DNA of 63,812 bases, filler included, from Hausera hauseri (Eukaryota), in the NCBI GenBank assembly GCA_046269625.1. It is 11 parts of 11 records of this genome, joined end to end, with 100 filler letters (N's around TTAATTAATTAA, not from the genome) between each part and the next. Parts side by side here need not be neighbours in the genome. Positions count along the whole stretch, not along the records: positions 1 to 12,138 come from JBJURY010048885.1; 10 more parts are not named here. One strand, given 5' to 3'. A program made the translations under genes and the position numbers. The notes below the pieces were generated by a model that saw nothing but the letters and a program-made list of their open reading frames with translations, had not been told where the DNA came from and made no database searches. The first letter of the stretch is position 1; every line of letters begins with the position of its first letter. This document shows positions 1 to 36,029 of this stretch, one piece after another.

Positions 1-93
1 GATTTTTTGATTTTTTGATTCAGATTTTTGGGTAATTAAGAGATCCTAACAAAAGTACCTATTGTTAAGATAAATTAAATTCTATTTCAGCTA

Positions 94-1185
94 TTGTTAC
101 TTGCCCATGATACGAGTCCGATAAGAGAAATAGCCCGGACAATACTGGCTAAGGCAGCTGAGAATAAGAAAGGAAGAAACGAAACAGTAAGAATAACGTT
201 AAATGAAGGAAACCAAGACATGAGGGTCATTAGAATGAATGAAGCTGATGATATACAAACATTACGAGAAAAGATTGAAGAATTGGAACCGTTTTACAAG
301 GAAAAAGTATACGGATTAAGTTTCTATGGACGAACGTTATATACTTATGATAAGTTACTAAGAATTGGATGTAGAACTGAAAATTATAATCCAATTATAA
401 CAGACATACACCCCGATGCAAGAGCAGAAACAACGATAGATAACATAATGAGGGAACTGGAACCTCAAGAGGTCGAAGAGCAACTATTAGGTGATACACA
501 GGATGTTACGGGACGAACAGAAGCCCGAAGAAGAGGAAGGTCAAGAGGAACAAAAATAAGTGATATTCGAAACAGGAAGAATCGGAATGAAGAAATCGTG
601 CGACGTTTATTATTGGCAGGGACGGATACGACGCCAGAATCTATAGATATAGATCCATTGTTAAGAACTCTATTAGCCAAATTACACACGTCATTTGCAT
701 CGTTTGACATGCAAATGGCAATTTCTGACAAACTGTTTCAGACGTTACGTAACGGTATGTTAAAAATTAGTAGGCAATTTTATGAAAATATTGGCGAGGA
801 ACGAATCAATGAATTACACGAGCAAGACATACTAGAAAAGATATTTGCTACAGGAATCACACAAGAGAAAGTAGTAACGGCTACCGCTTACTTATTATAT
901 ACGGTAATCGTTATTAATTATCAGACACAAAATGTTGAGGAAATCGAGAGGAACATCAAGGTAACGGTGAAAGTTTTACGTGATACTTTGGGAAATTGGG
1001 TACAATGTAGAGGCAGATGGATACCAAGCCTAATGAATGGCAGACTAAGACCTGAGGGAGGATCATATGAAAGATCTATCATAACACAATCTAGTGCCAT
1101 TAGACAGGCTCTAGGTGGAATATCATTTATGGAAATATTACAATTATTATTAATAGCATCCATCTGTATGCCTAAAGCTATGGGA
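94..1185 (+). pseudogene. Retroelement polyprotein segment: ubiquitin-like domain (about 181-410), helical region, internal signal peptide
   Basis: ETVRITL...IQTLREKIEEL...LSFYGRTLYTYDKLLRIGC fits a beta-grasp/ubiquitin pattern; hydrophobic ILQLLLIASICMPKAMG directly precedes the glycoprotein. Confidence 0.6.
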
Positions 1186-3000
1186 ATAGTAGACTATGAT
1201 TGTTCGAAGCCCAAAGAAGGGCAGAAGTACTCATTAGTCTATCTAGAAAATGTCCGGAAGCCGATCCAGAACAACTTACTACGACTGGCGTTCACCTCTA
1301 TTGGGTATATTAAGAACAGAAGTTTATTAAAGTTAAAATTAAGAAAGGTTATGTGGAGAAATCGTTCTTTTTGTTTCACTCTGCATATTATTCGGGAAAT
1401 TCTGCCATTATTGAACCAACAACGCCTTTTGAACCAATAATAATATCACGAGTAGAGTGCCAAGATGCTTTTAAAATTGAAGTCATAACAATACAGAACG
1501 CCCAGATACAAGCAGTACGACGGAAGATAAAGTATACTCAAATCTTCCGAGTAGGAAGAATCGACAAAACGATAGAAGGCACTTGTAAAGAAGTAGATTA
1601 CAATGTCGGAGGTACCATCGCTCCAAGAACAGTAGATATCGAAAATTACCAAGTTCAATTAAAAGAGTACGAAAACTATTTGACTCACAGACTAAACTCA
1701 TGACGACAATGAGTGAATGCGAATGAGAGTGGTAAATGTGACACTGGAGAGTCAAAGATGACTTGGGAAATATCTTCAAACCGATGTCACTTGACTTTAT
1801 TAAAAGAAAGGAAATTCAATAAAACGGTAGGAGAGATAGATGAAAAAGAAACTACAACCTATAAGGAAGGAGTTAAAGAAGTGAAAATAACAAATGTTGC
1901 GACAGTCGTGTACTCAGAAAACCCGGAGGAAATGATGCGTTTTAAAATTATGGGACCAAGCAATAAATGTGACGAAGAAATGTCTAAGACCAACTATAAA
2001 GGGATATATCTCTCACCCAAGGAGGTAGCACAGACTAAGACAAAAGTGGATAAGAAAGATATTAAATTAACACAATATTTTGATAACAAGATCGACTTTT
2101 TAATTAATTACGTCAGAAAAGAAATTCGAAGTCTAGAGAGAAATAATATTAAATGAATGCAAGTTAAATTACGAAATAATTCGTAATAAGATGGCTTTAA
2201 TAATAACAAACCCAGATATGGTAGCACCAGTGATGCCATTCGGCGATGGAGTAATCGGAAGAGTGATGAGCGAAGTATTAATAACTATTGAATGTAAAAG
2301 GATAGAAGTGTCTATTAGAGAAACTAAAGAGTGCACTTCAGAATTACCGGTTATCTACAATTCGGAACCCCGTTACGTAATGCCAGTAACACGAATATTA
2401 CTAGACTCCAATGCAAAACCTACGAAACTGGATAATTGCACTTTTAATATGTCGCTAATGTTCAAATTGGATGATAAGTGTATCAAGATGCCGAAAAAAG
2501 AATTGCTGCCGAAACCTGAAACATTAACTTTGATCAATTTACAAAGAAATCAAAGGTTTGAACCACTCACGGGCATATCGCAAGGAGGAATTTACACACA
2601 ACAAAACTTGGAAGATTATCGAAGAATGTTATTGTTTTCTCAGCAAATACAACGTTTAATAACTGAATTAACAAGAAGGGTAATGTGGGACGGAGAAGGA
2701 TCACCACATTGGGAAAATCTGATGGGAAAGGATTATTTGAAGAAAGTAACAAGAAACGTAATGGAAAAGATGTGGGGAAAGTTTTTATATTTCGGCCAGG
2801 CGGCCTCTGGATTTTTAGAAATATACTTTATTATCAGTGCCTTACGAACTATATTTACTGCCCTCGGTAAAGCTTATGGAATCCATGCAGCAATTGGATG
2901 CTCATGGAAAATCCTCATAGCCATAATACCGGCAGTAGCCAGTTGCTTTTTAGCAAATCACCATGCGAAATGGAAAAGGAAAATACTTAAGGAAAAGAAT
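1186..3000 (+). pseudogene. env: Chuvirus (Jingchuvirales)-like envelope glycoprotein, split by a frameshift near 1248 and by stops
   Basis: Motifs IVDYDC..KYSL..LE.C; YFDNKIDF; NPDMVAP..G..GRVMSEVLITIEC..IEV..ET.EC.SELPV.Y...YVMPVTRILL; GGIYTQQNLEDYR; WGKFLYFGQAASG..TM..AYGIHAAIGCSW match the chuvirus G pattern as I recall it. Confidence 0.82.
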
Positions 3001-3363
3001 CACGATACTGAAAATAATTCACCGTATAGCACCTTAAATAATAGAGATGACTTAAATCCAAACCCTAAGAATGATAGATATATAAATCGAATTAAACGGT
3101 TTTCCTGGAAACCCCGAAGGCAGAAATATAAACAAAGACTAATTGCCGACTTACCGCAATTAGATCTCGCGAATGAATACCAAGGGCACGTATACATTGA
3201 TCAGCCTTTAGTAAATCCCTCTGCCCCTCAATATCTGAGACATAGTGGAATGTACCTCACATACCAAGTATTACAAATGAAACAGGCCTATGAAGAAGAT
3301 CCTGTATTACATAATCATGAACCTACGTGTAAAACAAACAATAAAGACAAAACCCAGTCTATT

Positions 3364-3700
3364 ATAAGACCGGAGATAGATATTAAAGTGAATGGATATC
3401 CATTAACCGCGCTAATAGATACAGGATCAATAACCACCATCATGGGACAAAGTCAATTACCTAAAGAGCTAATGAAGAAGTTGCGTAAGGCAAAGAAACC
3501 GCTGGTTAATATTGGAGCCTTTGGCACTAAAGAAATAAAAATGGTTCTCGATGCCATAATCAAGATATGCGACCAGACAATAAAACATGATTAGAATAGC
3601 CAAGAACCTAACCAATAAAATATTGATAGGATGTGACGTACTACAACAGTTAAGTGATGTATATATTAATGTTAAAACCGGTCAACTTAAAACGTTCAAT
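3364..3700 (+). pseudogene. Retroviral-type aspartic protease, in frame with the glycoprotein tail
   Basis: RPEIDIKVNGYPLTALIDTGS (Asp codon 3418-3420) lies inside ORF 2191..3594; ILIGCD motif follows after a frameshift. Confidence 0.9.
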
Positions 3701-4199
3701 AAAGATCGATATGGAGGATCAGTTTCAATAATCAAGGATGTCATAATTCCTCCTCGTTCGGAAATAATAGTATCTGGTAGAATAAAGAATAAATCACTGG
3801 CGAATTGCATGCACTTCGAACCCTTTCCTCAAGTGATGAAAAAACACGACATCCTAGTCGCTCCACAAGTGGATAGAATAAGACAAGGAAGAATTTATTT
3901 GAGGATCTGTAACGCTGGAACGAAAAAAAAAACGATTAAGAAAAAATACTTGACTTGGAAAGATAACAACAATTGAAGAAACACCGAAGGAAGTGATCAA
4001 TTCAATCATCACAGATGTGGAGAAGATTGAGAAAATGATGGTAAAAAAATTAAAGAAAGAAGTAAACCAAAACTAGAGAGAAAAGAAAGCCGGCAACATC
4101 AATTGGGAAGAAAGATTAGGTGTTTGTAAGACCCTAATTAAGAAAGAGAAATATATGTTTATCCAACTGTTATAAAAGAATGATAACCGATTAGCGTGG

Positions 4200-5520
4200 A
4201 ATGATTATGACTTAGGGACGATGAATGCGATACAACACGTCATCAAATTAAAAGACGGACAAGAAAAGCCGATAAAGAAACGACCTTATAGACTAGCATA
4301 CGATAAAAAGGAAGAAGCACGAGAAATTATAAAATAAATGCGAGAAAAGAAAGTAATACGGCCCAGTTGTTCTCCTTGGACAGCACCAGTAGTGATGGTC
4401 AAGAAAAAGGATGGCACCATGAGATTCTGCATATATTATAGAGCATTGAACGAAATAACGGAGACCGATACATACCCATTGCCAAAGATTGAGGAAATAT
4501 TATATAAATTACATGGATCAACAATATTTACCACTATTGATATACAGAAAGGATATTGGCAGGTAGAAGTAAAAGAAGACAAACCGAAAACGGCTTTTTC
4601 AGTAGGTGCAGGATTATGGGAATTCAATATGATGCCGTTTGGATTAAAGAACGGGCCGCCAACTTTTCAAAGAGGAACACAATTACTACTTTTAGACGCA
4701 TCCCATGCTATTGTATATATCGATGACGTGATAGTAGCATCATCGAATTTTCAACAACATTTGAAGGATTTACAAGATCTATTCGACAGATGCGAAATAA
4801 TGGGTTTAAAATTAAATCTCAGGAAGTGCACACTTAATCAAACTGAAGTTGATTTTCTTGGACATCGAGTTGATAGGCATGGCGTCAGACCACAAAAAAG
4901 ACTACTAGGAAAAATCCAAGATTTTCCAAAGCCCACTACTGTTAAAGAATTGCGACGATTTCTCGGACTTGCGAATTATTGTAGAAAATTTATAAAGGAT
5001 TTTAGTAAAATAACTAAACCGCTTTACGAGCTATTATACGCAGACATAGAAAAGGTAATATGGACAAACGATTTCCAGAATCCGTTTGAAAATTTGAAAG
5101 AAAAATGATAAAACGCCCCTATCTTAATTTATTCGGACATGACTAAGCCATTTATATTAACAACAGATGCAAGTGACTATGGAGTAAGAGCAGTTCTATC
5201 ACAAAAAGAAAAGGATGGTGAGGAACATCCAATTGCATATGCATCAAGAAAATTAAATAAGCACCAGAAAAAGTATGCCGTTATCGAAAAAGAATTATTA
5301 GCAGTAATATTCGCATTAGATGTATTTTCACCTTATATCAGTGAGAAGAAACCTTTAGTAATATACACAAATCATCGACTGTTACAATGGCTGAAAATGC
5401 ATGAAAATCCCAACAGTAGATTATTACGATGACTTTAAAACTTCAGCCCTATACATTAGACTTTCAATATAAGCCTGGCACGCGAAATGCGAACGCTGAT
5501 TACTTATCGAGAATGCCGCA
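4200..5520 (+). pseudogene. pol: Reverse transcriptase and RNase H (Ty3/Gypsy)
   Basis: SPWTAPVVMVKKKDG, MPFGLKNGPPTFQR, YIDD, LTTDASDYGV, YASRKL, EKELLA, NADYLSR. Confidence 0.95.
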
Positions 5521-5789
5521 GGAACAAAAGGAACGAAAAAAGTAGTAGCAGCTGTATGAAGCATGGACGAATCCGTAGAAAAGATAAGAGAATCAAAGGG
5601 AAGATGAAGAAATAAAAATGATCAGAAATTATATTCAAAGTATAATTATACCAAAGAATAGAGAGCTAGCTCGTCATTTAGCCCCATTCAGTGAAGCTTA
5701 CAAATCAAAAAACGGATTTCTGTATTATATTCATCAGAATGGACTCGCACTAGTAATTCCAAAAAAATAGAGCAGTCTTACTAACCCAG

Positions 5790-6800
5790 TACCACGACGG
5801 ATTATTAGGCGGACACCAGTCAGTAAAAAAAACGATAAATAAGCTGAGAAGAAAATACTTTTGGTCAACCATGACAAAGGATGTTCAAGACTGGTGCGAT
5901 AGCTGCAAATTATGCGCTACCTGGAAGAATACCGGATCTAAGTTTAAAGCCCCTCTGAAAGTATGGGGCAATCCCCCGGTTCCATTTGAATTTACTGCAA
6001 TGGATACAACTGGACCATTACCACTAACTAGAAATGGAAATCGATACATTTTTGTATTTATAGACTATTTTACTCGATGGGTCGCAATCGCACGAAAAAT
6101 TTGTAGAAAATATTGTATTTAATTATGGAGCTCCAAGGATCCTATTAACAGACCAGGCGTCGAATTTAACCGGCAGTGTGATGCAAGCGATATACGAGAT
6201 TATGAGTATACTAAAGTTGCGGTCAACACCCGCTCATCCGGAAAATAATGGAATGGTGGAAAGATGCATCGGTGACTTGAAGAATAAGTTACAAATGGTC
6301 GTCGGTACTAGGCAAGATGATTGGGACGAATACATTAACACTTGTGTATTCGTAAATCGAACGTCAGTACATGAGGCCACAAAAAAGACTCCATTCTATT
6401 TGATGTATTTAAGAGATGCTAGACTACCCATTGACTTGGATTTCAACGTAAGGCCCACATCCCACTTAATGGAGGTGGAAAAATACAAACAACTAATGCA
6501 AGAGCGATTACAGTTAGCATATAAGATAGTAAAGGATAATCAAAAAGATTATAAGACAACTTATAAAAAGTATAATGACAAAAAAACTAACCAACTGACC
6601 ATTAAAGTAGGAGATTCGATCATGTTATATACTCCACTAAATAAAAAGGGAAAAACATCCAAATCGGATAGACCATATAAAGGACCATACGCAGTAGAAA
6701 AAGTAGATCTACCCAACGTTTGTCTCAAAAAAGATAATACTAATCTTAAAGTTCATGTTAACAGATGGAAACCCGCGCCTAAGGAGAGCGAATTAAGAAA
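5790..6800 (+). pseudogene. Integrase (HHCC zinc finger, DDE core, GPY motif)
   Basis: YHDGLLGGH...CDSCKLC; AMDTTGP; LTDQASN; NGMVERC; YKGPY...VHVNRWKP. Confidence 0.93.
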
Positions 6801-6859
6801 CAATGAACAAGAACTTATACGGGCCATCAACTATAAGAAGAGAGCTAAGAAAATTTCGA

Positions 6860-8180
6860 ATTACGATGTATTCAAATACTTCTGCCTATGGGTTCTAATA
6901 AGCATGCCAGGCCTGTGAGCTTAGACAATAAAACCACTTGACCCATGGATGAGAACATTCCCTTCAAACGAAACCTTAGAAAATAGCCTAATGATGAGTA
7001 TTTATCATGAGATAACTTATACAAGAAAAAAAGCAAAAATGTATAAGATTTATAGTATTCGAAAGATTACCCAATCAGTACATGATAGGAATCCAAGTAA
7101 TCCACGAGCATGATCATGAGCGAAGCTCGAAGCAACGAAAGTATGATTGCGGCAATACTTATTGGAGGAACACGACGGAATGTATAGTAGACGATTCCGG
7201 CAATTATCTTGTATATTACACTCTGATCAAGAGACATAAGAATCGCTACCAATGGCAATATACCAAGTGCTGAGGTATTATACATGTCTCTAATAGACGA
7301 ATAATTAACACAACCAGATTAGGCGAAATAATACTGACCCAACTTACCATTAAGCCGATAGGATTTAAAAGAAGACGAAGTTGTATAGAAATTAGAACAA
7401 TGATAGAGCTAGAAGAAAATAGAGCTATAAGTATAAGGCTCACGGAGGTAAAAAAGAAACAAAAGATGCCAACAAAATGTCGGCTGACTGACAGATACCT
7501 TCGAGTTTGCTGTAAAGTCGTACGAGAAAGAACCTACGGTGTACAAATTATGTTAATACGAAAGGATTCAGAGAATGTCAAGACTTTGACTTATCAAGGG
7601 CCTAGAACATGTTCCATTTAAAAATGTCGATGAGTATGACGACTACCAGCAACTAAGTGTCACGACACCTCTTGTGAGTCCTACACGACCTAATGAAATA
7701 AAGATTAATTTCGGAGAAATGGCTGTTCTTATGTGACCCCACGTTTTACCCTATCGTCACAAACGTTCAGTTTTAAAAAATGTCACAGTATCTTCCACAC
7801 TTACTTCCTTAGTTGTAGCTATCCCACCTGATTTACATTTCTATAAAATTAAACTTATCTGCAAGCTAGGTCAAAAGATAATAGGAAAAGGAATAATCAC
7901 ACCAGACGATACAATAGTGCCGTATGCCGACCTAAGTCCCAATACAAAATATACGGTTACATTACAACTATATGGCGACGATAATACGATGATTGCAACT
8001 AAATCGTTAACAGCTTCGACGAGAGCCCGAATACAGCAAAAACCAGAAAATGGGAAAATAAGTACAAGCTCAAACCAAAAGATACAACCACCAAAAGCAA
8101 GTTATACTTATTCTCGAATAGAATTAATCATAATAACGGTAGCATGTCCTATAAATTTGTTAATTGTACTGACACGATAA
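6860..8180 (+). pseudogene. Degenerate post-integrase membrane protein with furin site, FN3-like domain and TM helix
   Basis: Hydrophobic FKYFCLWVLISMPG at the integrase end; RHKR at 7755-7766 in frame with LKNVTVSSTLTSLVV...LSPNTKYTVTL and a C-terminal IELIIITVACPINLLIVL. Confidence 0.5.
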
Positions 8181-8383
8181 AAATAATCATTTATGTACGA
8201 AAACATCAGAGATCAAATTGGATTAGGATAGATATGCGACATATACCGAATATCCTAGATACCAATAATCCAAGTTAATGGTGGCTGTTTCGGATTGTAG
8301 CTGCAATCCGAATAGTTAAGATAACTAAACGCCATCTAGTTATCTACGCATTAAATAAAAGTAAAACCACAACGATTACCAAT

Positions 8384-9682
8384 ATGTGCATGATAACCGT
8401 TGTGTTGAAAATAAGTATTCTGTACATACCGATAGTGACGTTATTTCATATAGTCTCCGCTTCAACATTCAACCAAATCCAGTCTATTACAAGATCCAAA
8501 TATTGGTATAATAACGCCAAGAACCACATTATTAACGCCAGTTCAGCCAATCAATACTATGTGACCCATAACGATTATACAATCAGTTTAAATTATCCAC
8601 AAACTCAGCAGATACCCAATAATTTAAAAGGGTACAGCATGGCGAACAGATCTTTGGCGATACTTTAGATGACAAAGGCAACCTCATTATATCATACTGA
8701 CATTATTCTCCTCCCTGATAAATATTACTCATTAAACATTTACTGTATAGTTGGACAGTTCCATATTAAAACTACAGCCAGACAAACCTCAATAAAAGGA
8801 GATCTTATCAATATGAATCCAGAGCATGGATTAGCATTCAATTATTCGTTTATTCAAAACAATACCATAAAGATACGATCTCTTACTAATCAAATAATAA
8901 TGGCAATCGAGGTCATTAGGAACAAAAAGTTTCAACCTAGAGTGCCCAATGGAAAATGTTTTGATCTTCCCGAACCCGATTGTGTCAAAAATAAAACTAT
9001 ATCTTATCGACAAATACAGCAGATTACCGATACTGACCTGGTCATAGCCGCTGTTAATTTAGCCTATTACCATAGGAATCAACTCCAGCCTATCGAGATA
9101 TCTATTATAACTCCCTCTGGAAACACCTTATTCTACACGATCGTCTACCCCAGACAGCGTATCAATAATTTTGATAGCCATATAACTGGCCTAACGGAAG
9201 CAAACATCAGCAATCAGATGGACCCTACAGAAATAATCACGGACAAGATAGTCATTGGAACCGATGTAATTGAATTGATAATAAATCACTTTAGGTGCCC
9301 CATCAGACGGATAGCCGGAGTTCGTAATATTTTATATCACGAAGAGGTTATTCGAAAATACCAGCTATCAATCAATACATACAAAGAACTTGCGAAGAAG
9401 TTCTACGATTCAAAAGGATTCCCTTTACGAAGTACTGCCTTGGTACAATGCTACCAGGCCATCTATTGACAATCAAAATGGAACGATGAATTAATCCTAG
9501 AAGATGCGGCACCCGATAGTGTGCGAAAAGCACAGATAACATCAACATGTGGACGAAAAAGAAAGCTCCAAGTCGACGAAACCGTGATTATAGACGATGA
9601 AATATATGAACCAGAATCTATCCGTTATAAATCCAGATCATCAGATAAAGTTATTCATGTACCATTGCCTTTCGATCAATGA
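8384..9682 (+). pseudogene. Accessory ORF ending in a degenerate DEDDh (REX/ISG20-like) exonuclease fold
   Basis: 8384..8668 and 8669..9469 share a frame, separated by one TAG; IEISIITPSGNTLFYTIVYPRQRINNFDSHITGLTEANI and KIVIG resemble the REX-family core, but the DxE motif is replaced by AAVNL. Confidence 0.5.
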
Positions 9683-9717
9683 CAAATTTGGGACAACTTC
9701 TTCAGTCCCCCATGAAT

Positions 9718-10528
9718 TGTGCAGATGTCGATTGACTTAATTTCCCATTTCTCGAATTAGCAAACTAATTTAGCAAATGTCGATTGACTTAATTTCCCAT
9801 TTCTCGAATTAGCAAACTAATTTTACAAATGTCGATTGACTTAATTTCCCATTTCTCGAATTAGCAAACTAATTTAGCAGCTGTCAACTAATAAATGTTA
9901 ACAATAAACGTAAACCAGTGTGGTAATAAAGACTAGGAACTATTCCTTTCGGTAACATGTGATTTCAATATGGTATTGTGTGAATTTTTATTCGAATATT
10001 GTAATATATTTTTTGGTTGCTGTTATTTATTATTGGATATGTGTAAACATAAAATAGTATATATACAACAGTGTTTGAGCATTGATCATGAATTTGTTAA
10101 CCTGTCTCTTCTCAGATGACTACACGTAAGTGTCATTCTTTTGTGGCTGATTGTTAACATCTTTGTTTACGATGCATTTTGTATTTAGGCGTATTTTTTG
10201 TATAGTTGAAGAGTTCATTTTTATTCTACACGTAAATAATTTGAATAACTAAGTAAAGCTGCTAAGTAAAATCAGAGATTCGTCGTCCAGGTTAACCCGG
10301 CCTGACGACAGCCAGTTTAAAATAAGTAATCCCATAAGATATTAAACCGTAATAAATAAGTAAAATATAGATCACTGTCCCCTACACATTACCGACATAT
10401 AAGTAGGTAAAGTAGTAAGACTCATTATCTGCTATCCTTACGTCCGAACGCATAACTACGTCATTTGTTCTCCTCGTTAGCCAATTTACAGTGAAGCCTC
10501 TCCCATTGTGGTTAAGGAGGACTGAACA
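9718..10528 (+). repeat. Putative LTR (single copy in this contig)
   Basis: Non-coding stretch between the last ORF and the PBS, bounded by TGT...ACA; contains AATAAA; 5' boundary uncertain. Confidence 0.55.
9725..9880. repeat. 52-bp tandem repeat, 3 near-identical copies
   Basis: ATGTCGATTGACTTAATTTCCCATTTCTCGAATTAGCAAACTAATT... starts at 9725, 9777 and 9829. Confidence 0.97.
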
Positions 10529-10531
10529 AAC

Positions 10532-10549
10532 TGGTGCCGTTACTTGGGA
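10532..10549 (+). promoter_or_regulatory. Primer binding site, tRNA-His-like
   Basis: TGGTGCCGTTACTTGGGA lies 3 nt after ...GAACA and resembles the complement of the tRNA-His 3' end (TGGTGCCGTGAC...); it is just upstream of gag. Confidence 0.75.
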
Positions 10550-10652
10550 TAACTAGGCAAGAAACCTTTAGATAAGCATCTAGGCTACTAAAATTACGAC
10601 CAGAAGAGGAACACCGTATAGAGTAGAGACAGAAGACAACTTACCCTTTGGA

Positions 10653-12127
10653 TTGGAATTCTTAAACAACTTAAGTGAAGAAGAAGAAAACGGAATGGCC
10701 CAGAATGAGCATAACGTAGAACAGGTGATACAGTCGAAGGCCGACTTCACCTTACCCATGAAGAAGTTTTCAGGGAAAGAGGACGTACAAGATTTTATTA
10801 TGGAATACGAGGTATATTTAAAGAGTTTTGGATGGAATGACCAGCAAAGGATGGAAAGGTTACCTCTCCATATTAAAGAAACTGCATTAACGATTTACTT
10901 CCAAATGCCAGAAGAAGACAAAAAGGATTGGAAAACTGTCAAAGATAAGTTGCTTAAAAAGTTTTTAGTTGATCCCTCTGGAAAAGGAAAATAGAATAGT
11001 TTATAAGAAGAAGGCAGCAAAAAGATGAGACAGTCTAGGATTTTATTTGCGCATTGGAAAAGTTAGCCACAAGGGCTTACCCTGATGCAGTAATAAGAAG
11101 TAACGCACTGTTGGCTCAATTCCAATATGAGTTAGAAGGAAAGTTAAGAAGTATAATATTACAAGCTGACCCACCTACATTTCAAAAGGCAATAAGGAAA
11201 GCACAAAAAGCCGAACAGGACACCGAACTATATCGGTGGACAAAATCAAGAAATGATAATGGTAATTACGATAAACGATCGAATAATAGTACACAAAAGT
11301 ATTAGCGGTATAATAGAAACCGAAGCACTTCACAAACATCAGCTACAGAATCTGAGTCAGACATGAAAGAAAGTGAGGTTCAAATTAAAGAACGATAAAG
11401 AAAAGTCAAACTATGAAAAAGGGTCTACAAAAGATAGAAGGGCACTACCAAATATAGATTCGGAAGGAAGCTTAAAGTGTTTTAACTGTAATAAGTATGG
11501 CCACATAGCAAGGGCATGTAGGTCACACAAAAGAGAGTCCACAAAGTCAATAAAGGATTATACATCAGCTACGTCGGATTAATCATCCGATAAAGAACAT
11601 GAAACAGAAGATAGTGAAGAAGAAACAAAGAAAAAAGATAAAAAGAAAGAAAGTGTAAATTATGTTAATGAGATACTATCCCAACATATGAAAAAGAAGC
11701 TAGCTATAGAATTAAAAAACTATAAAATTCAACAGAAACGATTAAAAGAAAATAGTATTTATGCAACGGAAGAAAAGCCAAAAGGAGGAAAAGTACGACA
11801 AGGAAGAAAGAAGGGTAATAAAAAGATAACAGAAGAGGTGGAAAGCAGAGAAACTTCTGTGGAGAAAACCGATTTAGAACAAAAAAAAGGAGACGAAAGA
11901 AAATTGAATCTGGCAAGTCGACGTCGGAAGAAAGTAAAGGAAACGTGCTACCTACAAAAATTTTCGATGAAACCGTTATTGAACAAGTAATACATGATAT
12001 AGAAGTAGACTTAGATGCCGAGGATGATCTTATCCAAGCAGTGATTGCTATAGACCCCGAAAATATAATAGATGTGATTCAAGCGACAAGCACAATACTA
12101 CAATTAATAGACAATAAAGTGTTTTAG
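10653..12127 (+). pseudogene. gag: Gag (capsid plus CCHC nucleocapsid) with a charged C-terminal extension
   Basis: KFSGKEDVQDFIMEYE...W..VKDKLLKKF capsid pattern; CFNCNKYGHIARAC zinc knuckle; interrupted by stops and frameshifts. Confidence 0.9.
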
Positions 12128-12138
12128 TTTTTTAACAT

Positions 12139-12825: not shown

Positions 12826-15800
12826 CTATTCTGTTGATGTAGGAGGCGTGACCCTCACATCTCCAAGAGACAGATCTACTAAAAACTGAACAATGGGCAT
12901 TAGAAAATCCTTGTCCGAGTCCGGCTCACCAGGCAGCCAACTTGTAATATAGAAGGATTTGTTTGTAATATCCGTTCCACGTTTACCTTTTGTTGGCTGT
13001 ACCCTGGTGATTTTCTCCGAGTACTCGGTGACTTTACCGTCCATGTACCAGACATGTTTAAAGGTGCAACCAACCACTTGTGTTGGATCGGCAATAATTC
13101 TCTTTAAGAAATCCATACCCGCATCATCTAAATTTTTGAACATATCAAGTTCATCAACATGCTGACGATGAATAACCGCATTAGTCAGTGTTCTCTCTGA
13201 CTTCTTCCGAGAGGTGTCGTCCTCCTTTTGAGCACGTTCCATCTGACGCCTCTGGATTTCCTCATGCAGATGAACAGTTTTCGCTTCATTAACATCGCGC
13301 ACATCTCTAGCACGCGTAGTGGCGAACGAAATGAGGTTTCGTTGTTCATCTTTGGGGAAAGCTTCCAACCATTCAAGGACTTTGTTAAAGGTGCCTTTTA
13401 CCTTGCCATCAATGAAGCCACATGTGGCGTTAGGTGCTCGCCGCCAGATGGCATCCATGGTGCCCAAAGCCCTTTCTGCCTGCATGTTATTGGCGGGAGC
13501 AGATGCAGTAGCCGCCAGCATTTCGTCGGATGGGTGCGCAAGATCACCATGGATTTGAGATTTCAGCTGATTACTTAGGACGTGGTGGATTGAAGTGGCT
13601 AACGCTTTAACAGTTGCTAACAACTGTTCCTCTAGCTCTGGCTGCACATTTCTAAGGGCCCGCACATCGTCGGACAGGTTTATAGGCGCTCCAAAAGCAT
13701 CCCCTGTACCATGTAAAATTATGGCCGCCTCGTGCTGCAGTTTGCTCACATACTCCAGGCCTCTTCTAATAAAGTCATTTAACTGAAGGTTGGATTTTTT
13801 CTCCGGATTTGCATAGAAAACACCCAGCCATGGCTCAGTCAGCACAATAGCAAACAGCCCAAGAGCTTGGAGCTGGACTTGTACAAGCTCTTGCTGTAAC
13901 CCGTCCCTGATGGGTTTCTTGAGCTTCGAATGAATGCCCGTTTTCAGGTATTCCATAAGATGTTCTCTATACAGGAAAATGGTGGCCGCGTTGTGAAACA
14001 AGGTATTAATCCTGTTTCCAACAACTTTTGGGAATAGTCCCATTTTGAGTTTTTTTTGCCTCAAAAAGTTCATAAACCCAAGTGGGTCACCTGTTTCCTT
14101 GTACCGCAGCTTCGATATTTTGTAAATAAGGTCAGCTGCGATACATTCTGTACCGGATAAATTTGGGCGCTGGAGGTTCCACTCATGATCAAGTTTGGTG
14201 AGGGTACTTTTAGCAGCACGAGCCACGCCATCTAGAGGATGTACTAAACAGTTCAGCTCAATTACATGCATGTCCAACTGTTCTCGCAGTTTTTCAACCA
14301 CACAGTGGTTTACAGGGGCTTTATCGGACATGGTACTCTTGATCTTATCCACAATTATTGTTCGAACGTCATCTACTGCCAGTTGAAAGGCATCTGAATA
14401 AATGCGGATAACATCGAGCAGAGCTTTAGAAATGTGCGCGTAATAGTCGGCAGTAGTTCCGCCGGGCAGCACATCTATACTAATTATAAACCTGTCAGAC
14501 TCTGTTTCGATGTGCACCTCATTAACATGGGAGCCTTTAAGAGTTGTTGCATCCCATGCTAATGTAGCCACTCCTGCCGTCCTATGTAATTCATAACCTA
14601 CTTTGATATCCGACAGAACGCCCAGTTCGTAGGACATATGGGAAACTATAGATTTGGTGGGAAATGCAGACAATTGTTTGTGAAACAAACACTCACCAAC
14701 ATATTTTATTACATCACAACAATTGGTAACGCTCACGTGACAAACTAAACATTTATATATACATTTCCTGAAATCACATCCGTAAGTCTTACCATTATCT
14801 TTCACTTCAATCGAACTAGCATTCATCTCATTCACCATCTCTTTCAAACTTTCAATTTTATTTTCCATCCAACTTGCACTCATACTTTCTCCTTTCTTCA
14901 ATTCATTCATTTCTGCTTCAAATTGTTTAGTCAGCTCTTGTGATTTCTTCCTCGCATCTGCTCTGAATTTTTTTTGTTTCTTTTGTAACTTTTGGATGCT
15001 TCTCTTTTTTTTTCTAATTGTTTATTTAAATTTTCTGATGTCATTTTAAGGTTCGAAATCTCTTGATTTTGTAGCCCAATGCAATTTTTTAATTCTGAGA
15101 TTATTTGTTTTAGTACCTGTACTTCGCTTTGTTTTACTTTGGCTGTTTGGTACATATCTTTCCATTTGTGTGCACTGTTTGATTTTGTTCTTATTATTTG
15201 TTGTTGACGCCTGCGCTCCACTGTATATATGTTTTCATTGAACAACCTCTTCTGTTCTCGCAACTTTTTTCGTAAAATTTCATTATTTTGTTTAACAGCC
15301 ATTATAGTTTTTAAATGTGACACACATTTTTCGCAGTTACGCCTCAGCTTCTTGGATGTTGTTGCCTCAAATAAAGTACTCAGCGGCTGTGGGGGAAGGG
15401 AAGCAGTGAATTGCGCAAAAGGAATTAAAAAATGGTCTGGCAGCAACTTCATAAGTGAAGGCCACTCACTACTTAAATTTTTTTTTTTCCGCCAGAAAAT
15501 CTTGAAAACGCCTAATAGCTGCCCCTAAGGCATGTACATTTATACAGCGATCCTTTTCGGTGGTTTCCACAACAGCTATAACTTGCTTCTGCACTTCACT
15601 TATGCTGTTGCCACCAGACAGCAACCTAGCTACATAACCATTTTTTACAGGGTAATCATTATTAAAAACATTTAAATACATGTCCAGATCGGCAACAGTT
15701 TTAGTCATCAAATGCTTTCCAGATCCTTCCTCCGCACAGCGATCTTCCTTTCTCGTCTTTCTTAGCGTCATCGGCCCTGAAGGTGGACGCGTTGAGGGAG

Positions 15801-17325: not shown

Positions 17326-17367
17326 ACTCGTAAGTTAATTAAGCATAACTTAATAGACGTTGAAAAC

Positions 17368-18380
17368 ATGGTTGAGAATCAAGCAGTAGCCCAGAGGCTA
17401 GATATTTTTACATTTGATTCTCTGAATCTACGGGCATACGACGGAGACCCGGATGGACTTAATGAATTTCTGAAAACCATTAAGCTGTACGCAGAAAGTG
17501 CTGGACTCGCATCTAATGTAACGATTAAACGTTTGTCGTTATATTTGAAGAATTTGGCCTCTGATGCCTACAGTGAACTCACCGATGATGAGAAGAAATC
17601 TTGGTCCTCCCTGGTAGGAGCCTTAAACCGAAAATTATTACCGACTAACTCCACAACAAAAACTCATGGCTTTTCAGAATGGAATGCAACAAAAGGGTGA
17701 ATCAATAACCCATTTTGCATGTGCCTTAAAGAAACTGGCAAAACAGTTATGTGAGTACCTTAAGAATAGCAAATATAGCCAAAGCTAAAAAACAAAACAG
17801 AACGTGAAGCCGCAGAGAAGGCAAACCCTCCCGATTTAGATGTATTTGGTCTAGAGACATAATAAAGCAGTTGATTTTAGCACATCCAGAGAACTTTGAC
17901 AGAACATTGCAATTAGCTCAAGGCTTAGAAATGGCACTGGACAGGTATGCCAGAAATAATGACACAAACGATAGAAACAATGATTGAAATAATCGTAATA
18001 ATAAAAATCATAATGATAGGCGATTTATAGAAACTATGGAAATAGAAATCAGAGCGGTAACAATGATTATAGAAGTAATCGGTATGGTAAACGAAATTTT
18101 GACAACGACCGAAATAGTCCATCTAGCAAATCAAACTATAGTACGGATAGGCGCTCAGGTGGCCTCAGAAATGTTAACAATGGGAACCGGCATAATGATA
18201 ATCAAAGCAACGATAACCTCAAAATGGGGACACTAGACAAGTCTCGTCGAGTTATAACAGAAATTCAAGTAGATCGAAGTATCCGGTAAATGAAGACGCT
18301 GACAAAGGGTCGGTAGTAACGGTAACCTAATTTGTTACACATATGGACAAGAAGGACACGTAGCGATGTCCTGTTCAAAC
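17368..18380 (+). pseudogene. gag: Gag with Asn/Arg-rich linker and degenerate zinc knuckle
   Basis: YDGDPDGLNEFLKTI...LYLKNLASDAY...SWSSLVGALNRK; CYTYGQEGHVAMSC at about 18330-18375. Confidence 0.8.
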
Positions 18381-21300
18381 TCACTAAGTGTTTCGTTTGT
18401 GGAACCTAGCAAAACTAATATGATTAAGAATGAAAACTTAGAAGCAATTTATGACATCCGTAAAGACACGGGTATGATTATTGAGATACAAGATTTTCGA
18501 CGTTTTTTGAAGACTCAGCCTGATACTAATAATCCAAAAGTTGTGATGGTCAGGAATGAGTATGAGCACAAGTTACGATTGCTAGAAGTGTATCATGGCC
18601 TTAAAGGCCAGAAACTGAATACGAACGTTCAATTGCGCCACCAACGCTTGCTGACATGGTTTGTTGATTATAAGTCGTAGAAAAAGAAATCCAACAATAG
18701 TAACAATTTTTTGTATTTTGTTTCAAATTCCAAAAAAAACTACCAATACTGTAATTTAATCAATTCTTGTACCATGTCTATCATGTAATAAATAATATCA
18801 CAAAGATATCTATATTTTACACTAGCTTTTAGTAGAGAAGTGACGTAGATTTAAATGTGAGCCGAACTGAACTGTCTGTTAAAAAGGAACATTGTAGATG
18901 TGCGAAGCGATGTAACCATTTATTGAAACGACGTTGTAAATAGAATGATGGAAAGTTTATATGGTTTTGGAGCAGTTTGATGATTCAACAAATGATAGTC
19001 CTTCAACGTTTGATTTCATAGACGATTTGATAAACGATTTGAAAAATGATCCTGAACGAGTCACGTGTGGGAGAGATTGCAATTTCCACTGAATGAGAGA
19101 AATTGGATATGTTTTCGGAAACTGGAGATTGACGACCAGTATTCTAGTGAGAAAACGAGCTGCTTCCGCGACCGTGACAGCACACACATGGCACGTAAAA
19201 AGAATTTTCCTGCGACTTATAAAGAAGCATAGAAAGCAGAAAAATTTGAAACCTCAAATAAAGTAGACTTGGACGCGGAACCCGAATATATGGTAAAAAA
19301 AGTAAACAAAAACTATAGAAATTGACGAAGAAAAAGAATTTATGGAATCGCTAATACTAAAAATTACCAAGAATAGAGGCCGCAGCCCATCATTAAAGCG
19401 GAAACGTAAGGATTGTTTGCGATCTCCGATGACTAAGGAAAAGTCAGACGGAGCAAAAAAAACTGAAATCGCTCTAGGAAGTTATGCAGAGTTCATTTTG
19501 AGCACCCAGGAAACTAGTGTAACTACGCCTGTCGAAGTAGAAGAATTAGCAAAATCTGGAAATGAAATAAATGATATATGTCCATTGCCTACTATTGAAG
19601 AAGAGACAGAAGAAGCTGAGAAATTCGATCATAAATAGTGGAAAATCAGACGTTCTGGGAAATTTACTGATGAATTAAAGCGAATAAGGATTAATTGCCT
19701 CAACCCAGACGTATTGCAACAGAATCTGGAGAAACTTAAAGAAATGAGCAAACAAATGGATATTTCCGGTAAAGAACAACAGTTTATAGAAAGGCTATAA
19801 AGAAAAATGAAGTTATGTAGTGAAGGGAAGTTAAGCGAAGCAATCGACCTGGACCAGCCGGAAGAAGTGTCAACAGAAACATTGGTAAAATGGGAACATG
19901 AATTAGAAACGTAGATAAAAGTGGAGTAAGACTCCCAGCGGCATGGGACAAAACTACCCAGGGCGTTGAAGCAAAATCAACCAAGCCCAGTCGTTGGTTG
20001 CCACATTAGAAGCTAATCCGAAATTAAAAAGTGTAACACATAACTTAGAGCGCATCATGAGTAAAATTAAATTTAAAATAGTTGAGCGACTCAAAGAGAA
20101 ATCGGTCAAGGAACAAAACGAAATTGATCTAAAAATATTAGGCATAGATTCCGTAGATATTCCGTCCTTAATGCAAATGATAAAAATTGCTTCCACCGCT
20201 TCTACAAGCCTGGAGAATCCCATTAAGATTGAAACCGAAAAAAGATCGCAAATATGCAGTCTGAGGAATAGAATTATGCAAACAAACAGTGATGAAACAC
20301 AGAAAATAATTACAGCCTGTATCCTCGAATTTGATGAGTATAAGGATAAATTCAACTGCGCATATCAGATCATTGGCTTTATTAAAGGCCCGGATGATGA
20401 ATTAGAAAATGCTCGCAAAATGTTAGAAAAAGCAATACTGGTAAAGCCAAATATCGATAATCAATTAAGTGAATGGTCCAAAGTCATAACACGACTAAGT
20501 AAACTAGTGCAGAGCCACATAAAAGAATTTCCAGAAAGCGAGCATACAGTGAGAAAACAATTAAAACAGAATCTCAGAAATCTTGACACAATGAAAGCGG
20601 AAATAGATATCAGGACCCAATTCGACGCATTACGCCGGCTAAACTTTATAAACGAAAAATAAAAAATAACGATACCAGTGGACATATATAAGATGATTAA
20701 AGAAACGAACTTTACAAAAAAGCGGAACATGACTTGCAACTCTTACTCGAGATTGAGAAATGTCCGTTTAGAAGGAATCCAACATTTGACAGCCGAACCT
20801 ATCGAGATCTCAATTCGTGATCTCAGAACCTTGGACCTTTGCCCGGAACATCGGTCAAATGTAGAAGAAACAATGAAATTCTTGCACAACCCACAAGAAT
20901 GGATGATAGGAACGGATAAAATATGTCATACCGAACTGATAAAAATAAGAAACGACCACCACCTCAGCTTCGAAGAAGCCAAGTTTGTGAAGAAATGCTA
21001 TAGACCCGGACTCAAAATTATCAACGATCTGTACGAGTTAGCGCTACTAATGGTGGAAATGGCAGAAATCAGTGATGAGAAAATAAGGTAATTGCTACCC
21101 CAAATACGGCAAGTCGAAGAAACTTGCTTTATGACCGAACAAAGCGAGGTAAGATTAGACGAAGTGACTAAGGAGCTTAAAGTTTATTAAAATAAGTATG
21201 CTCTTACAGAAGTAGAGAAGGCCGATAAGTCACTTTTCGTGCAGAGCTAACTAAGTATCAAGAAAAAGGATCGATTTCAGCCGAATAATTATGCTAGTTG

Positions 21301-21756
21301 CTAAAAGTATTACGCCAAACTTCCGGAAATGGACGATGTTCACGAACCACTCAAATGATTATAATGCAACAAAAACTGCGCGAAATGAGAGAATCATTTA
21401 AAGACGTAAACGAGGCACAACCACTAGAGATGCTGGAAATTGATTTCGGACTGCCCGAAAATAAAAGTGAATGGGATGCGTATCTAAATGCAGTAGTCGC
21501 CGAGAATCCTAAAACCTTCGTACATTTGTACGAAACGGAGACTTGTGCACCGGATCAGAGATTCAGTGTGGGAATGCTGCTAGACTCAGCACAAACGTAA
21601 AAAGATTTAATTAAGTTAATTAAAGTAAACCTTACCGAAAATCCGCTAAGATAGTTAGTTCCCACCCTAACCAAACTATGAAGCGAAGGTGCGATTTACG
21701 ATGCTGTGCCAAAACTTTTAATAAAAGAGTACGCTAAAATCTTAAAAACAAAGCCA

Positions 21757-21990
21757 GAAGAGACGATTAAAATAAGAATAACGTCCGACGGGATGGACGA
21801 TAAGGAACACGAGTTCACTACGAGTTCTCTTGTGAGAGATGTAGTACTATGGTTAAGGAGTAATGGTTATGCGAATGAACCGAACTGTAGACTCTATTTT
21901 AGAGGAAGAATATTAGATGAATTGGAGAGATTAATAGACGTTGGAATCAATTTATGTGAAACCAACCGGATGGTAGTAACGGTCGCTACG
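21757..21990 (+). pseudogene. Ubiquitin-like domain
   Basis: ETIKIRIT...VRDVV...CRLYFRGRILDELERLIDVGI resembles ubiquitin [21 protein letters not shown]. Confidence 0.65.
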
Positions 21991-22752
21991 ACCGAAACCA
22001 AAGAGGAAACTACAAGAAGGGCTAAAATGTATCACTGTGTAGGACGAATAGTAGGAGTTCAAGATGCAGCGATGTACTTCGAGTATTTGCAAACGGACGA
22101 AGACAAAGAACAATATGATAAGAATTTAGTACCACTCAGTGAGCGCGTTGGTCGTAGCGAAACCGAAGCCTTCCGTCGGTAGACGGCGAAAATCCAAGAA
22201 GAAATTAATCATAGCGGAGACTTAATTACAGGATTGAGGAAAATGTCCATATCGAACTTCAGTGCAGATAACGAAGAGCTGAATGAACTCATGAAAAATT
22301 TGATACGCATAGTAAATCACTCTAGTCTCTGTGGTGATATATTAGACGAGAAAGAGAAATCTATATTCAATGCAGCCAGGATCATGAAAAATTTCCGTTG
22401 TAAATACTCGAAAGGAACCTTAAGCGATGAAATGGTGATCGAGAAAATTATGGTAGAGAACACTATAGAGGAAATGAGAAAAGTATTGCTATATTTGGTC
22501 ATTAAAACAAATCCGACCCGAGGAAGCGAAACTGACAAAGCCACTGGTCTAGCGCAGAAGACCGCCAGGAAACTACCCCAAGAAATAGACTGGTCTAAAC
22601 TTTTTGAAAAGGAAGAGGAACATCGAAATAGAGCTTTCCCTAACCGACTTGAAGACATGATACGAAACTTAACCGGAAATAATCGAGTAAATGACTCAAA
22701 CTGGTTAATCAAATTTGTAACCGTAATGATGTTGATAAGACAATTGGGAGCA

Positions 22753-23737
22753 GTTACAATATATGACTGCGACAAATTCACGTTTGGCCAAAAATATTCA
22801 TTGATTGATTTAGAAATGTGCGAATACGCGAGACCACAAAAACTGAAGACAAAAGTGAAGAATTATGTGCTGTATCAACAACGCGAATTAATCGCACTGT
22901 AACGGTGCAGAATACGATACTGTAAAAGGGTTAGAGTCGAACGTAGTGGTTGCGCATTTCTACAAAACCGAAATGCGCCCACGAAAAGTGATGTTTCATA
23001 GTGTTACTAAACTCTACACGGAAAACCAGAAGTGTCACATCCAGAGCGGCACTTGTTCCAACCAAAACTGGTTGCAATTTTATTAGAATTAAAGAACTTA
23101 AGTTTAATGAAACGACAGGGAAACTTTATATAGGTAGAGGATATAGCCGAACAACCTATACCTACCATATTAATCTCCGATGCTCATAAATTAAAGTTTG
23201 TTAAGAAAGATATACTCACAAGATGTGATGTAATAATGTATACCACTAACTATGAAGCGTTCTTTGTAGCTGAGTCTGAGATAGATGCCAAGACGTTCCA
23301 GCTGAAGACTCAAGGTATTCGAATTGAGGATTATTTGAAGAACAGGGACGATTACTTCTACTATAAAGGACAGGCTGGAATAGCTGAATTATTATACAAG
23401 ATGAAAACGAATGACTGCAAGTTAGACTTAGAAGTCATAAGAACCAAATTGGCCTTAATTTATGCCAATCCCGAACTGGCATCACCAATAATTTTAATGA
23501 AAGAAGACGTTTTTTGCCGGGTGACCGGAGAAGTTTTACTGACCTAGGAATGTGAGAAAAGGGATGTACCCATTAATGTGGAAAAGAAGAGGTGTATACA
23601 AGAGCTTCCAGTGATATATTAAGACGTACCAATATTAGTAACACCAATTACTAAAGTATTGTTGGCAAATTCTACTCAACCTACAATTTTGTGAGACTGC
23701 AAGACCAGTCTAGGCGAACCAATGTTCCAACGGAGCG
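22753..23737 (+). pseudogene. env: Chuvirus-like glycoprotein (N-terminal part, decayed, cut by the contig end)
   Basis: Signal LIKFVTVMMLIRQLGA then VTIYDCDKFTFGQKYSLIDLEMC; LALIYANPELASP...CRVTGEVLLT*ECE...CIQELPVIY...VTPITKVLL. Confidence 0.8.
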
Positions 23738-24703: not shown

Positions 24704-27700
24704 TCCATGTCTAACTGCCTGATGGAGATTGATCTAACAGACTACATACCTCCCCCTATTACACAGATGGCAGAGCAGCTTTCTCTGCTTTCCATGAGGC
24801 TGAGGCCTGCTCTCAGGGAGGAAAGGCAGCTGTTGATTACTTGTGTAGATGGAAGAAGGATATTCCATATCTACCTCCAGTATGTATCCCGTATATCCAT
24901 TGGGATCCAGTTCCAGTAAGGAAATGTTTTCAGGATTCTCGACTTATTTGAAGTTATCGTATGACAGTAGGGCGCTAATTGCCCATCCATACAAGTTGTT
25001 GGCATCCAGGTATGATATATATATATGATGATTTCTTTGTTGAGTCGTATTCCGCCATATACTTGTTATTGGACTCACTACCGATGAATGGCCTGGCATA
25101 TTTCACCTCAAATGCCTCTCTCGATCATAAGGATCATATCATAATCCTTAATGATCAGCAGCCTAATACGAGTATAGCGCAGCATTGCTGCCCATCTCAT
25201 TCCTGGAGCTGTAGAGAAATGAGCAGGATCCAAAGCATGGCTCTTCATTGTAACATCCCTAAAACTCTCAAAGGCATCTGTCAGCAACAGCACGCCCGTC
25301 TTGAGGTAAATATCACTGTATTCCCCTATTGTCCCCAATTGCAATGCATGCCAGATTTTCTGGGCATGCTGGTAATCCATATCACTGATATCGCAAACAG
25401 AAAGGATATTGTAAAAGTCCTTATTGTCCGGCAATGGGGTTTCATCCAGTCTTTCCCATGAAGTTATATAATCATAAGGAAACACACCTTTCATCTTGAA
25501 TAGGTCAAATGCAGTGGGGAAGAACCGCTTCGTCTCCCTAAGTTCTTCTGCAGGGAGGTTAGTCACTAAACTGTCCAATAAAGACGACATGAAACAAAAA
25601 CTGTCTATAAAGCGAAGCCTGCTTTTGCCCACATGCTTGGTAAATGTGATATATTTTTCGTCACTGTTGGGGATCACATCTATATTACCACCAATGTTGC
25701 CTAATTCTCGGACTATGAAATGGGAATCATAGGCACTGAGATTATGGAAAACTACAGGCACATATGTGCATGTTTTGCAGCAAAGATTGCAGTTGTTGCA
25801 TGCTGCTCCTCGATATTCACCTGTAAAATGGCAGTGATCCTTGACTTTCCAATTTTCCTTCGTTAACGACGTGTCGCACAAGTAACATGCTGTTGCCTTG
25901 CGCCATTCTTCTGCTTGTTTCCACGACATTCTCATTTTATCCTTATGCTCCTGAAGCATGTTTTCAAGCTTATGAGCCATATATTCAAGTCGTTTTATGA
26001 AATGAGCTGCTTCACCTGGACCCCTGAATAGATGTGGTTTACTGTCCAGTCCTTGGGTATACACACAATACGATGAGAGCTCATGATATTGGTATGCCCT
26101 TGTGCTGATATATTGAGGACTGGCAGTGCAACTGTGAACTAGCCGGAGAATAGCTTCAAAGTTACAATAGATAACTATTGGAACATTGATCTTCTTCTCG
26201 AATTCCTTGAATTCAATATGGTCCTCCTTGGGAAATTCTGGTTTTACACAGTAATTGTTGTTGCAGTTTATTTTATGCTCTGCAAGCTTGTCCACTGCTG
26301 CATCAACTCTGGAATGAGACAGATATCGCTTACATATTTCTATTTGTTCATGATGATTCGTAATTTCGGATCTGACTAGACGCTCAAAGTTCTTGATCCA
26401 AACATAATGTTTCTTTCTTCCATCGTCGAGTAGGATCATATCCCTATTATCTTCTAATTTATTATCATACATCTGCAAGGGATAAAATTTATCATCCTCA
26501 TCCAATCCAAAGATGTTGTCTGATACTTTGTTGAGTCGATTGAACTTCTTAATTTCATGTAAGGATGAAGGGAATGTGGTACACTGGAAGTCATAGTTGG
26601 GCTGAACATCTTTATATTGCCATACTCGTGAAGCATTATGTTGATCAGGCACGAGTTTTGATGGAATGGCATACATTAAACACATGTTGTCATTATTATG
26701 GAAATTCATACATGCTTTTTTATTAGCGATCCAATTAGTGGGTTGAATATATGAACTAACCCGCATGGAGGAGAATCTATGCACATACAGCAGCAATCTC
26801 GTGATAATTGCTGGAGTCCATCCGCTCTTCTTACTTTGGCACTCATCAGCTTCACAGATCAGCTTTGCATGCTCTTCCTACAGCCATTCTACTCTATTGG
26901 TGGCTTTAAAAATTGGTCTATTTTTGGTCTTGAAGGGCCCTTTGGACTTTTCGCCATCAACATTAATGTATGTGGCCTCAAGTTTCATATAAGCCTTAAT
27001 AGCCTTAAGCTCAGCTATGTTGTCCTGAAGAATCACCTCTGTTTCTTCTTCTGTGTACTTCAGGAACTCCTTCATGGTTGTTTGTCCAGTTGCATCAATG
27101 CTATATTTGCGCCATTTTTTCTTTAATGTTGAAACAACAACTGGCCGCTGTCTTTGACTCTTTGATGCAGCGGGTACGCGTGATGCGCGTGATGCGTCCG
27201 ATGCGCATTTTAGTCCTGCATCTGACTGTGCAACAGGTTGTGGTATTGCAGGCTGTGATACTGCAGGCTGTGGTACTGCAGGCTGCGGTAATGGCTTATG
27301 TTCATTAAAGACGATCTTCTTTGACTTTGATGCGAAGTCAGTAGAATGATGTTTGTGATCTTAATAAAACTGTATGTATTCTCCATCACATACAGCCTCA
27401 CATCCTGGGCATATATAATAGATGATCCTATTGAATTTGTATCCATAATAGCTCCTCATGGTATTGTTGCAATTCTGAGGGTTGTGTATTGCACATGTGC
27501 AATACACATATGAACTGCATCCTTGATTTTCCTTTGGCATGAAAGTCGTTACTGGCATATTGGTACTGAATATTTGTTTTTTCGACTTGGTGAAGGGAAT
27601 CAAGTGCTCTTTATAGACATTGTAAAAGTCTTCATAATTTGTTTGGCACACTACCTCACATGTACGAAATATATAATACTAAACCCTGTTGTAAATATGG

Positions 27701-35751: not shown

Positions 35752-36029
35752 AGAACTATATATGAGGCGCTGCATTAAGTGGATGATCGTTCGGCATGTG
35801 TCGAATGTAAGTGCTGTTGTGTTGTCTCATTTTTTTTTGTTTTGCTGCCTCTATTTTGCATGCCTGACCACTTCTACCGACTAATTCCTGATTTTCTTAC
35901 TGATAAAACAGTTGCTCTTAGTGCTACTCTTGAAGCGAAATAGGATTTTTTTGTTGTTTTTTTTCTTTTTTAGATTCTTGTTGACATATAACATATACGT
36001 GCACATACTTCCCCGAACGATTTTCGATA

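Follow-up and report, generated by a model that had tools for sequence, protein, structure and literature searches.

The window analyzed here is a stretch of 63,812 nucleotides made of 11 contigs of the Hausera hauseri assembly GCA_046269625.1, joined by N/TTAATTAATTAA linkers, and the element studied is contig 1 (positions 1-12138, JBJURY010048885.1). On its plus strand we found a chuvirus-like envelope (env) gene that runs in frame into the protease (PR) of a Ty3/Gypsy-type pol with RT, RNase H (RH) and integrase (IN), together with a broken gag, an extension between gag and env, a membrane module after the integrase and an accessory ORF (Table 1).

Table 1. Features of the element on contig 1 (positions along the window).
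Feature	Position	Strand	Basis
Ubiquitin-like (Ub-like) domain in Gag extension	172..420	+	Profile of window stretch and 4 related stretches
Bcl-2-like domain directly upstream of env	700..1110	+	Pfam Bcl-2, E 3.7e-4, below curated cut-off
Internal signal-peptide-like hydrophobic segment (TM-a) before env start motif YDC	1135..1191	+	Kyte-Doolittle 1.95
Class III (gB/chuvirus-like) env ectodomain, broken in window copy	1186..2772	+	PF24664 pieces; tblastn
Uninterrupted frame: env C-half, membrane anchor, disordered linker, protease	2137..3594	+	Stop-to-stop, 485 aa
Membrane-proximal helix, env TM (about 2809-2868) and second hydrophobic segment (2899-2955), the weaker in relatives	2773..2955	+	Hydropathy, model
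Retropepsin (LIDTGS), frame ending before domain complete	3367..3594	+	RVP aa 411-480, profile 4-69 of 101, E 1.3e-6
dUTPase-like domain between PR and RT	3647..3955	+	3-sequence profile, best E 0.025 (weak)
RT and RNase H, Ty3/Gypsy type	4146..5521	+	Pfam; stops at 4173, 4335, 5106, 5109
Integrase (H2C2 and core), two frames	5760..6792	+	Pfam
Signal-like hydrophobic segment after integrase (TM-c)	6862..6915	+	Sequence
FN3-like domain (7773-8033), then hydrophobic anchor (about 8118-8177)	7737..8177	+	7-sequence profile
Accessory ORF, DEDD/RNase T-like exonuclease homologue	8669..9469	+	tblastn from L002 downstream ORF, E 5.6e-10
Primer-binding-site-like 12-mer, after putative LTR (limits not fixed) and upstream of gag	10532..10543	+	
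Gag (capsid and CCHC knuckle), broken; capsid/CCHC matches 10752-11564	10584..11564	+	tblastn of L001 Gag, E 1e-13

For sibling copies we used the contigs of one public run (X1), which is possibly from the source sample and therefore not independent. Most of the 16,947 run X1 contigs placed on contig 1 were less than 95% alike to it, indicating that the element is a member of a diverged multi-copy family. Run X1 contigs link position 12124 back to position 64, so the best reading of contig 1 is a circularly permuted (or tandem) unit of about 12 kb (about 12.1 kb), which when unrolled has the order gag, extension, env, pol, accessory ORF, LTR. With a profile of relatives, no match reached the piece of contig 1 just before 12124; it is therefore the run X1 joints that support continuity from one contig end to the other. 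An LTR pair was not found in contig 1, as would be expected if both LTRs collapsed in the permuted contig; the primer-binding-site-like 12-mer differs by one mismatch from the His-GUG 12-mer given in supplement 1 of PMC13524379. Three tandem 52-bp repeats (9715-9885) lie downstream of the exonuclease-like ORF and ahead of the putative LTR. In this copy, env is interrupted by stops (1311, 1701 and 1710) and changes frame near 1250 and again near 2140, with further breaks in PR and pol, the protease frame ending at 3594; the copy is decayed and is unable to make the polyprotein product.

Other contigs of the window hold features of their own. Another, diverged element of this kind occupies positions 17326-23737 on a separate contig; it has remnants of gag, a long extension in which a Ub-like domain lies at 21589-21993, and a signal-like segment (22705-22761) followed by an env start that is cut by the contig end. 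An uninterrupted 690-aa leishmanolysin ORF (Peptidase_M8, E 4e-94), which contains a Thr/Ser/Asn-rich repeat and is hydrophobic at its C-terminus, lies at 35985-38057 on another contig, perhaps from another organism. Decayed related ORF copies with Endonuclease_7 matches were seen at 25108-27360, 39719-42976 and 61480-63761 (minus strand), which resemble Polinton/Maverick-type DNA polymerase genes, and an intact 731-aa ORF at 12826-15021 (minus strand) had no Pfam match and looked DNA transposase-like by impression only.

The initial annotation had called the envelope chuvirus-like, and a profile comparison with viral fusogens bore this out: the Pfam family Monjiviricetes_fusion (PF24664) matched aa 2-302 of the frame at 2137-3594 (E 2.7e-51; profile positions 332-633 of 653), so the fusogen reading stands. 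The upstream env pieces matched the same family weakly (profile 65-186, E 5e-4; profile 249-332, E 6.5e-3), and tblastn of the ectodomain against intact relatives gave E values of 1e-81 to 1e-92. An AlphaFold2 model of the relative P0007 (pLDDT 82) matched herpesvirus gB in Foldseek (best E 8.6e-14, with TM-scores of only 0.3-0.4), which identifies env as a class III fusogen; this predicted gB-like fold belongs to the relative rather than to the window's own frame. In the AlphaFold2 model of the window frame, env was confident to aa about 290, one long helix crossed the membrane region, the linker (aa 297-410) was disordered and the protease part was poorly modelled.

As annotated initially, the ORF is stop-free from the ectodomain through the TM into the LIDTGS protease. 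The start given for it, 2191, falls within the open frame but is only an internal Met in mid-ectodomain, the true frame being 2137-3594. In the 1923 run X1 contigs covering 2700-3700, no indel is listed over 2700-3473, the first lying no earlier than 3474, and none of the 35 substitutions tested in sibling copies (40 shown, 312 in all) creates a stop. After the protease, Pfam matches to RT, RH and IN follow in Ty3/Gypsy order, in agreement with the annotation, and the RT piece is nearest to Ty3 among solved structures (top sequence matches in the PDB: 4ol8 and the Ty3-G Gag-Pol 7q5b, E about 1e-55); the PR-RT-RH-IN order and the Ty3-type RT place the element in Ty3/Gypsy (Metaviridae). Peptidase_A17 is the protease domain of BEL-type elements. 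Neither it nor DUF5641 occurred among the Pfam matches of the window ORFs, which were inspected for BEL-type protease and pol domains. All 13 PDB matches of the profile made between PR and RT are dUTPases.

The stretch at 79-1185, rather than being the capsid gene, proved to be a Ub-like and Bcl-2-like extension, with the Gag capsid and CCHC knuckle found at 10584-11564 instead. The Ub-like profile (five stretches) matched ubiquitin, ISG15 and the UBL of UHRF1 with a single-domain E of about 1e-4, and a profile made only from the relatives matched window positions 64-405 (iE 3e-4). Bcl-2 was the top match of the second domain in a PDB profile search (E 0.0025), and three of the six aligned members had a Bcl-2 match at E up to 1.

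We then turned to relatives of the env. Searching 1.84 billion representatives with phmmer yielded 593 matches, 150 of them listed. Among these best 150 of 593, at least 14 homologues continue from env to a protease motif within one protein, and 11 of the 14 rank among the top 16; Pfam confirmed the protease in 12 of those 14, P0010 and P0130 being recognized by the motif alone. Among the matches listed, env and RT share one protein in P0003, P0005, P0011, P0069, P0152 and P0154, and Gag features lie upstream of env in P0003, P0006, P0009 and P0010. A scan of metagenomes added three loci, two of which, L001 and L002, are intact copies with the same env-PR junction. L001 is a single 3703-aa ORF with Gag (two CCHC knuckles), env, two protease domains, RT, RH, IN and a C-terminal extension, in keeping with the gag-env-pol order proposed for the window element; L002 is a single 3426-aa ORF whose start coincides with the contig edge and which contains env-PR-RT-RH-IN; and L003 is truncated within env and carries a single in-frame stop immediately ahead of the env signal. 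The annotation had pictured an Env-Pol fusion separate from Gag. This had to be revised, since the intact relatives L001, P0006 and P0009 carry Gag within the same ORF, which points to one gag-env-pol polyprotein. A scan of viral contigs found no relative, and a word-index protein search, superseded by the phmmer matches, yielded none of greater length. Two to five retropepsin-like domains per polyprotein, some past the integrase, were observed in P0005, P0006, P0154, L001 and L002, and extra hydrophobic segments between proteases in L002 and P0154. The env-pol polyprotein P0003 is deposited under a Flavobacteriaceae MAG name, most likely through eukaryotic contamination of the bin.

A FastTree phylogeny of 142 env C-halves, leaving out 6 cluster duplicates and rows matching fewer than 200 query positions, grouped all 14 env-PR rows within a single 20-row clade (SH-like 97). 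Its remaining six rows comprise three fragments that stop short of the TM, and P0007, P0012 and P0014, which end after the TM without a protease; we tentatively read these last three endings and the L003 stop as decay or contig ends. The DUF5641-env protein P0127 lies outside the clade, as does P0098, in which an integrase is followed in frame by the same glycoprotein family (a pol-env fusion). The homologues listed, the ORFs of L001 and L002, and the single clade together support the in-frame env-PR junction as a trait of the lineage, as the annotation had supposed.

Examination of hydrophobic segments allowed us to propose a topology. Of the 14 relatives tested, 13 have a hydrophobic stretch ahead of the [YF]DC motif, as does the window. 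In stand-alone glycoproteins of 600-720 aa, [YF]DC lies within the first 60 residues in 61 of 73, near the N-terminus behind the signal peptide, suggesting that an ancestral signal peptide has been kept as an internal signal. Two hydrophobic segments follow the ectodomain, and in each of 14 relatives the first is the stronger, so that there is probably only one true TM rather than the several annotated; the window copy is reversed, with the second segment stronger (1.94 vs 1.55). The number of hydrophobic segments before RT was even in three of seven long relatives at one fixed hydropathy threshold, a count that depends on the threshold. With this arrangement, Gag would remain cytosolic and the internal signal would move the env ectodomain into the lumen; signal peptidase would likely cut just before YDC, restoring the native env N-terminus and leaving Gag membrane-anchored. 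The single env TM would stop transfer and keep PR-RT-RH-IN cytosolic, and it is a reasonable inference from the topology that Pol begins as the cytosolic tail of env. Pol would then travel with env to the budding membrane, where its own protease may free the enzymes.

A further membrane module was apparent after the integrase. TM-c has a counterpart after IN in P0003, P0005, P0069, P0152, P0154, L001 and L002, and the complete signal-FN3-TM module was found in the window and six relatives. The FN3 profile (seven sequences) matched FN3-containing receptors and matrix proteins (best E 9.5e-5). This second signal and anchor pair would display the FN3 protein on the same membrane as env, and the module may be an overlooked second surface protein. 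The accessory ORF in the window had no direct Pfam match; RNase_T was matched in the downstream ORFs of L001 (E 1e-3) and L002 (E 1.4e-5), and rotifer LTR elements are described as carrying DEDD exonuclease accessory ORFs (PMC5408684). In the literature searched we found neither the signal-FN3-TM module nor the DEDD exonuclease ORF, which subscription papers, Repbase reports, figures or supplements may describe. As a speculative proposal, possible but doubtful on present evidence, Burro-like elements could be four-pass polyprotein viruses that pair a class III fusogen bearing a Pol tail with a second surface glycoprotein (signal-FN3-TM) as attachment partner on budding particles, and that encode a separate DEDD exonuclease downstream.

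In intact relatives the domain order is continuous: Gag, Ub-like, Bcl-2-like, signal-like segment, class III env, TM, PR, dUTPase-like, RT, RH, IN, signal-like segment, FN3, TM. An element of this type is in print. The planarian elements Burro1-4/GYPSM1 (Arkhipova and Yushenova 2019, PMC6431247) are described as having one ORF with env in frame between gag and pol, running Gag with CCHC knuckles, Ubi/SUMO-like, BCL2-like, env, PR, dUTPase-like, RT, RH and IN; env sits between BCL2 and PR and matches arthropod and fish mononegavirus glycoproteins. They are present in many copies, decayed ones among them, exceed 30 kb, and have an ORF of about 4900 aa with MATH, BIR, Smc and ankyrin cargo. In planarians, BURRO1 RNA increases upon smedwi-2 RNAi (PMC8532177). 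GAG-ENV-POL Ty3/Gypsy elements with a gB-type env are reported from Nematoda, Bryozoa and Platyhelminthes (Chary and Hayashi, eLife 2026, PMC13524379). With these two descriptions published, the arrangement cannot be kept as the undescribed system that the initial annotation suspected. We conclude, with a probability of roughly 0.8, that the locus is a decayed copy of a multi-copy Burro/GYPSM1-type Ty3/Gypsy element, whose intact relatives encode Gag, a gB-like env and Pol in one frame as a would-be ER-threaded single polyprotein; the host is likely a flatworm, judging from likeness only.

The stops and frameshifts that abound in this copy, and its place on a contig that is concatenated, apparently permuted and part of a repeat family, would also fit an env-PR junction that is open by chance, through decay or a chimeric assembly of a single dead copy. 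However, the junction is open in at least 14 listed homologues and in two intact loci, and sibling copies have no listed indel between the TM and the protease motif; L001 and L002 effectively refute this explanation, whose chance we consider close to nil. More serious is the case in which the ORF is real and env and Pol are mostly made separately, through splicing, an internal start or recoding, so that Pol would not routinely be the tail of env. The demand of retroelements for Gag and Env usually far exceeds that for Pol, which speaks for separate production, as do the endings of P0007, P0012 and P0014 after the env TM and the L003 stop ahead of env. The absence of intervening stops between the domains in L001, L002 and the long homologues, and the conserved position of the internal signal sequence within the ORF, argue against it, and we hold separate production to be unlikely.

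The layout could also have arisen convergently, in an independent GAG-ENV-POL lineage of another animal phylum that is no relative of Burro. Such elements are not monophyletic according to PMC13524379, and the unit of about 12 kb, against >30 kb for Burro, and the lack of MATH, BIR, Smc and ankyrin in the window ORFs scanned would agree with a separate origin. Yet the Ub-like, Bcl-2-like and dUTPase-like domains all stand at Burro positions, ankyrin is present in the relative P0154, and the YQES motif of intact relatives occurs at four places in the ectodomain file of PMC13524379, all of them Schmidtea rows. We thus regard an independent lineage as quite improbable and retain the Burro/GYPSM1-type assignment.

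The likeness to Burro is one of domain set and domain order, the named Burro elements being compared by their description. Shared with Burro/GYPSM1 are the env in frame between gag and pol (env-PR in the window and the whole ORF in L001, the Gag side of the window copy being broken), the mononegavirus-like class III fusion glycoprotein, Ub-like then Bcl-2-like domains before env (modest matches, Bcl-2 below the Pfam cut-off), and a dUTPase-like domain between PR and RT (weak, E 0.025). Unlike Burro, the window unit is about 12.1 kb rather than >30 kb and so is not of giant size, and the window ORFs scanned had no Pfam match to the Burro cargo MATH, BIR, Smc or ankyrin; the relative P0154 reaches 4844 aa and has Ank_2. 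The window element further differs from Burro as described in PMC6431247 in having a signal-FN3-TM module after the integrase and, downstream, a DEDD exonuclease ORF. Given its smaller unit and the lack of MATH/BIR/ankyrin cargo, we file the element as Burro-like and not as one of Burro1-4.

With the GAG-ENV-POL errantiviruses of HSV/gB type (Platyhelminthes_C1a group, PMC13524379) the element shares gene order and a gB-type env related to chuvirus G. Compared by eye with the Schmidtea ectodomains (Smed_errantivirus_1-6, PMC13524379 supplement 2), the window env has CDTGES and TNYKGIY in common, and the relatives YQES. Those published elements are intact, whereas the window copy is broken, though its relative L001 has all three genes intact. 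A term search of the main text of PMC13524379 returned no mention of in-frame fusion, polyprotein threading, FN3 or exonuclease. In the literature searched we found no test of how capsid, fusogen and enzymes would be processed and packaged from one membrane-threaded chain. Non-canonical ERVs of nematodes reportedly have a continuous gag-env-pro-pol ORF, a phrase without occurrence among the literature matches listed. These ERVs (Sacco et al. 2022, as cited in PMC13524379) form a nematode clade with a metavirus env ahead of pol, and their likeness to our element is by description. Mosquito BEL/Pao elements with a chuvirus glycoprotein (Dezordi 2020) are described as carrying the same glycoprotein family with a BEL/Pao pol, unlike the Ty3/Gypsy pol of the window. 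Since the arrangement is already in print, our element represents one more family of a known kind, smaller and decayed, and what remains new beside the published systems is the post-integrase FN3 membrane module and, as a mechanistic question, the processing of the polyprotein.
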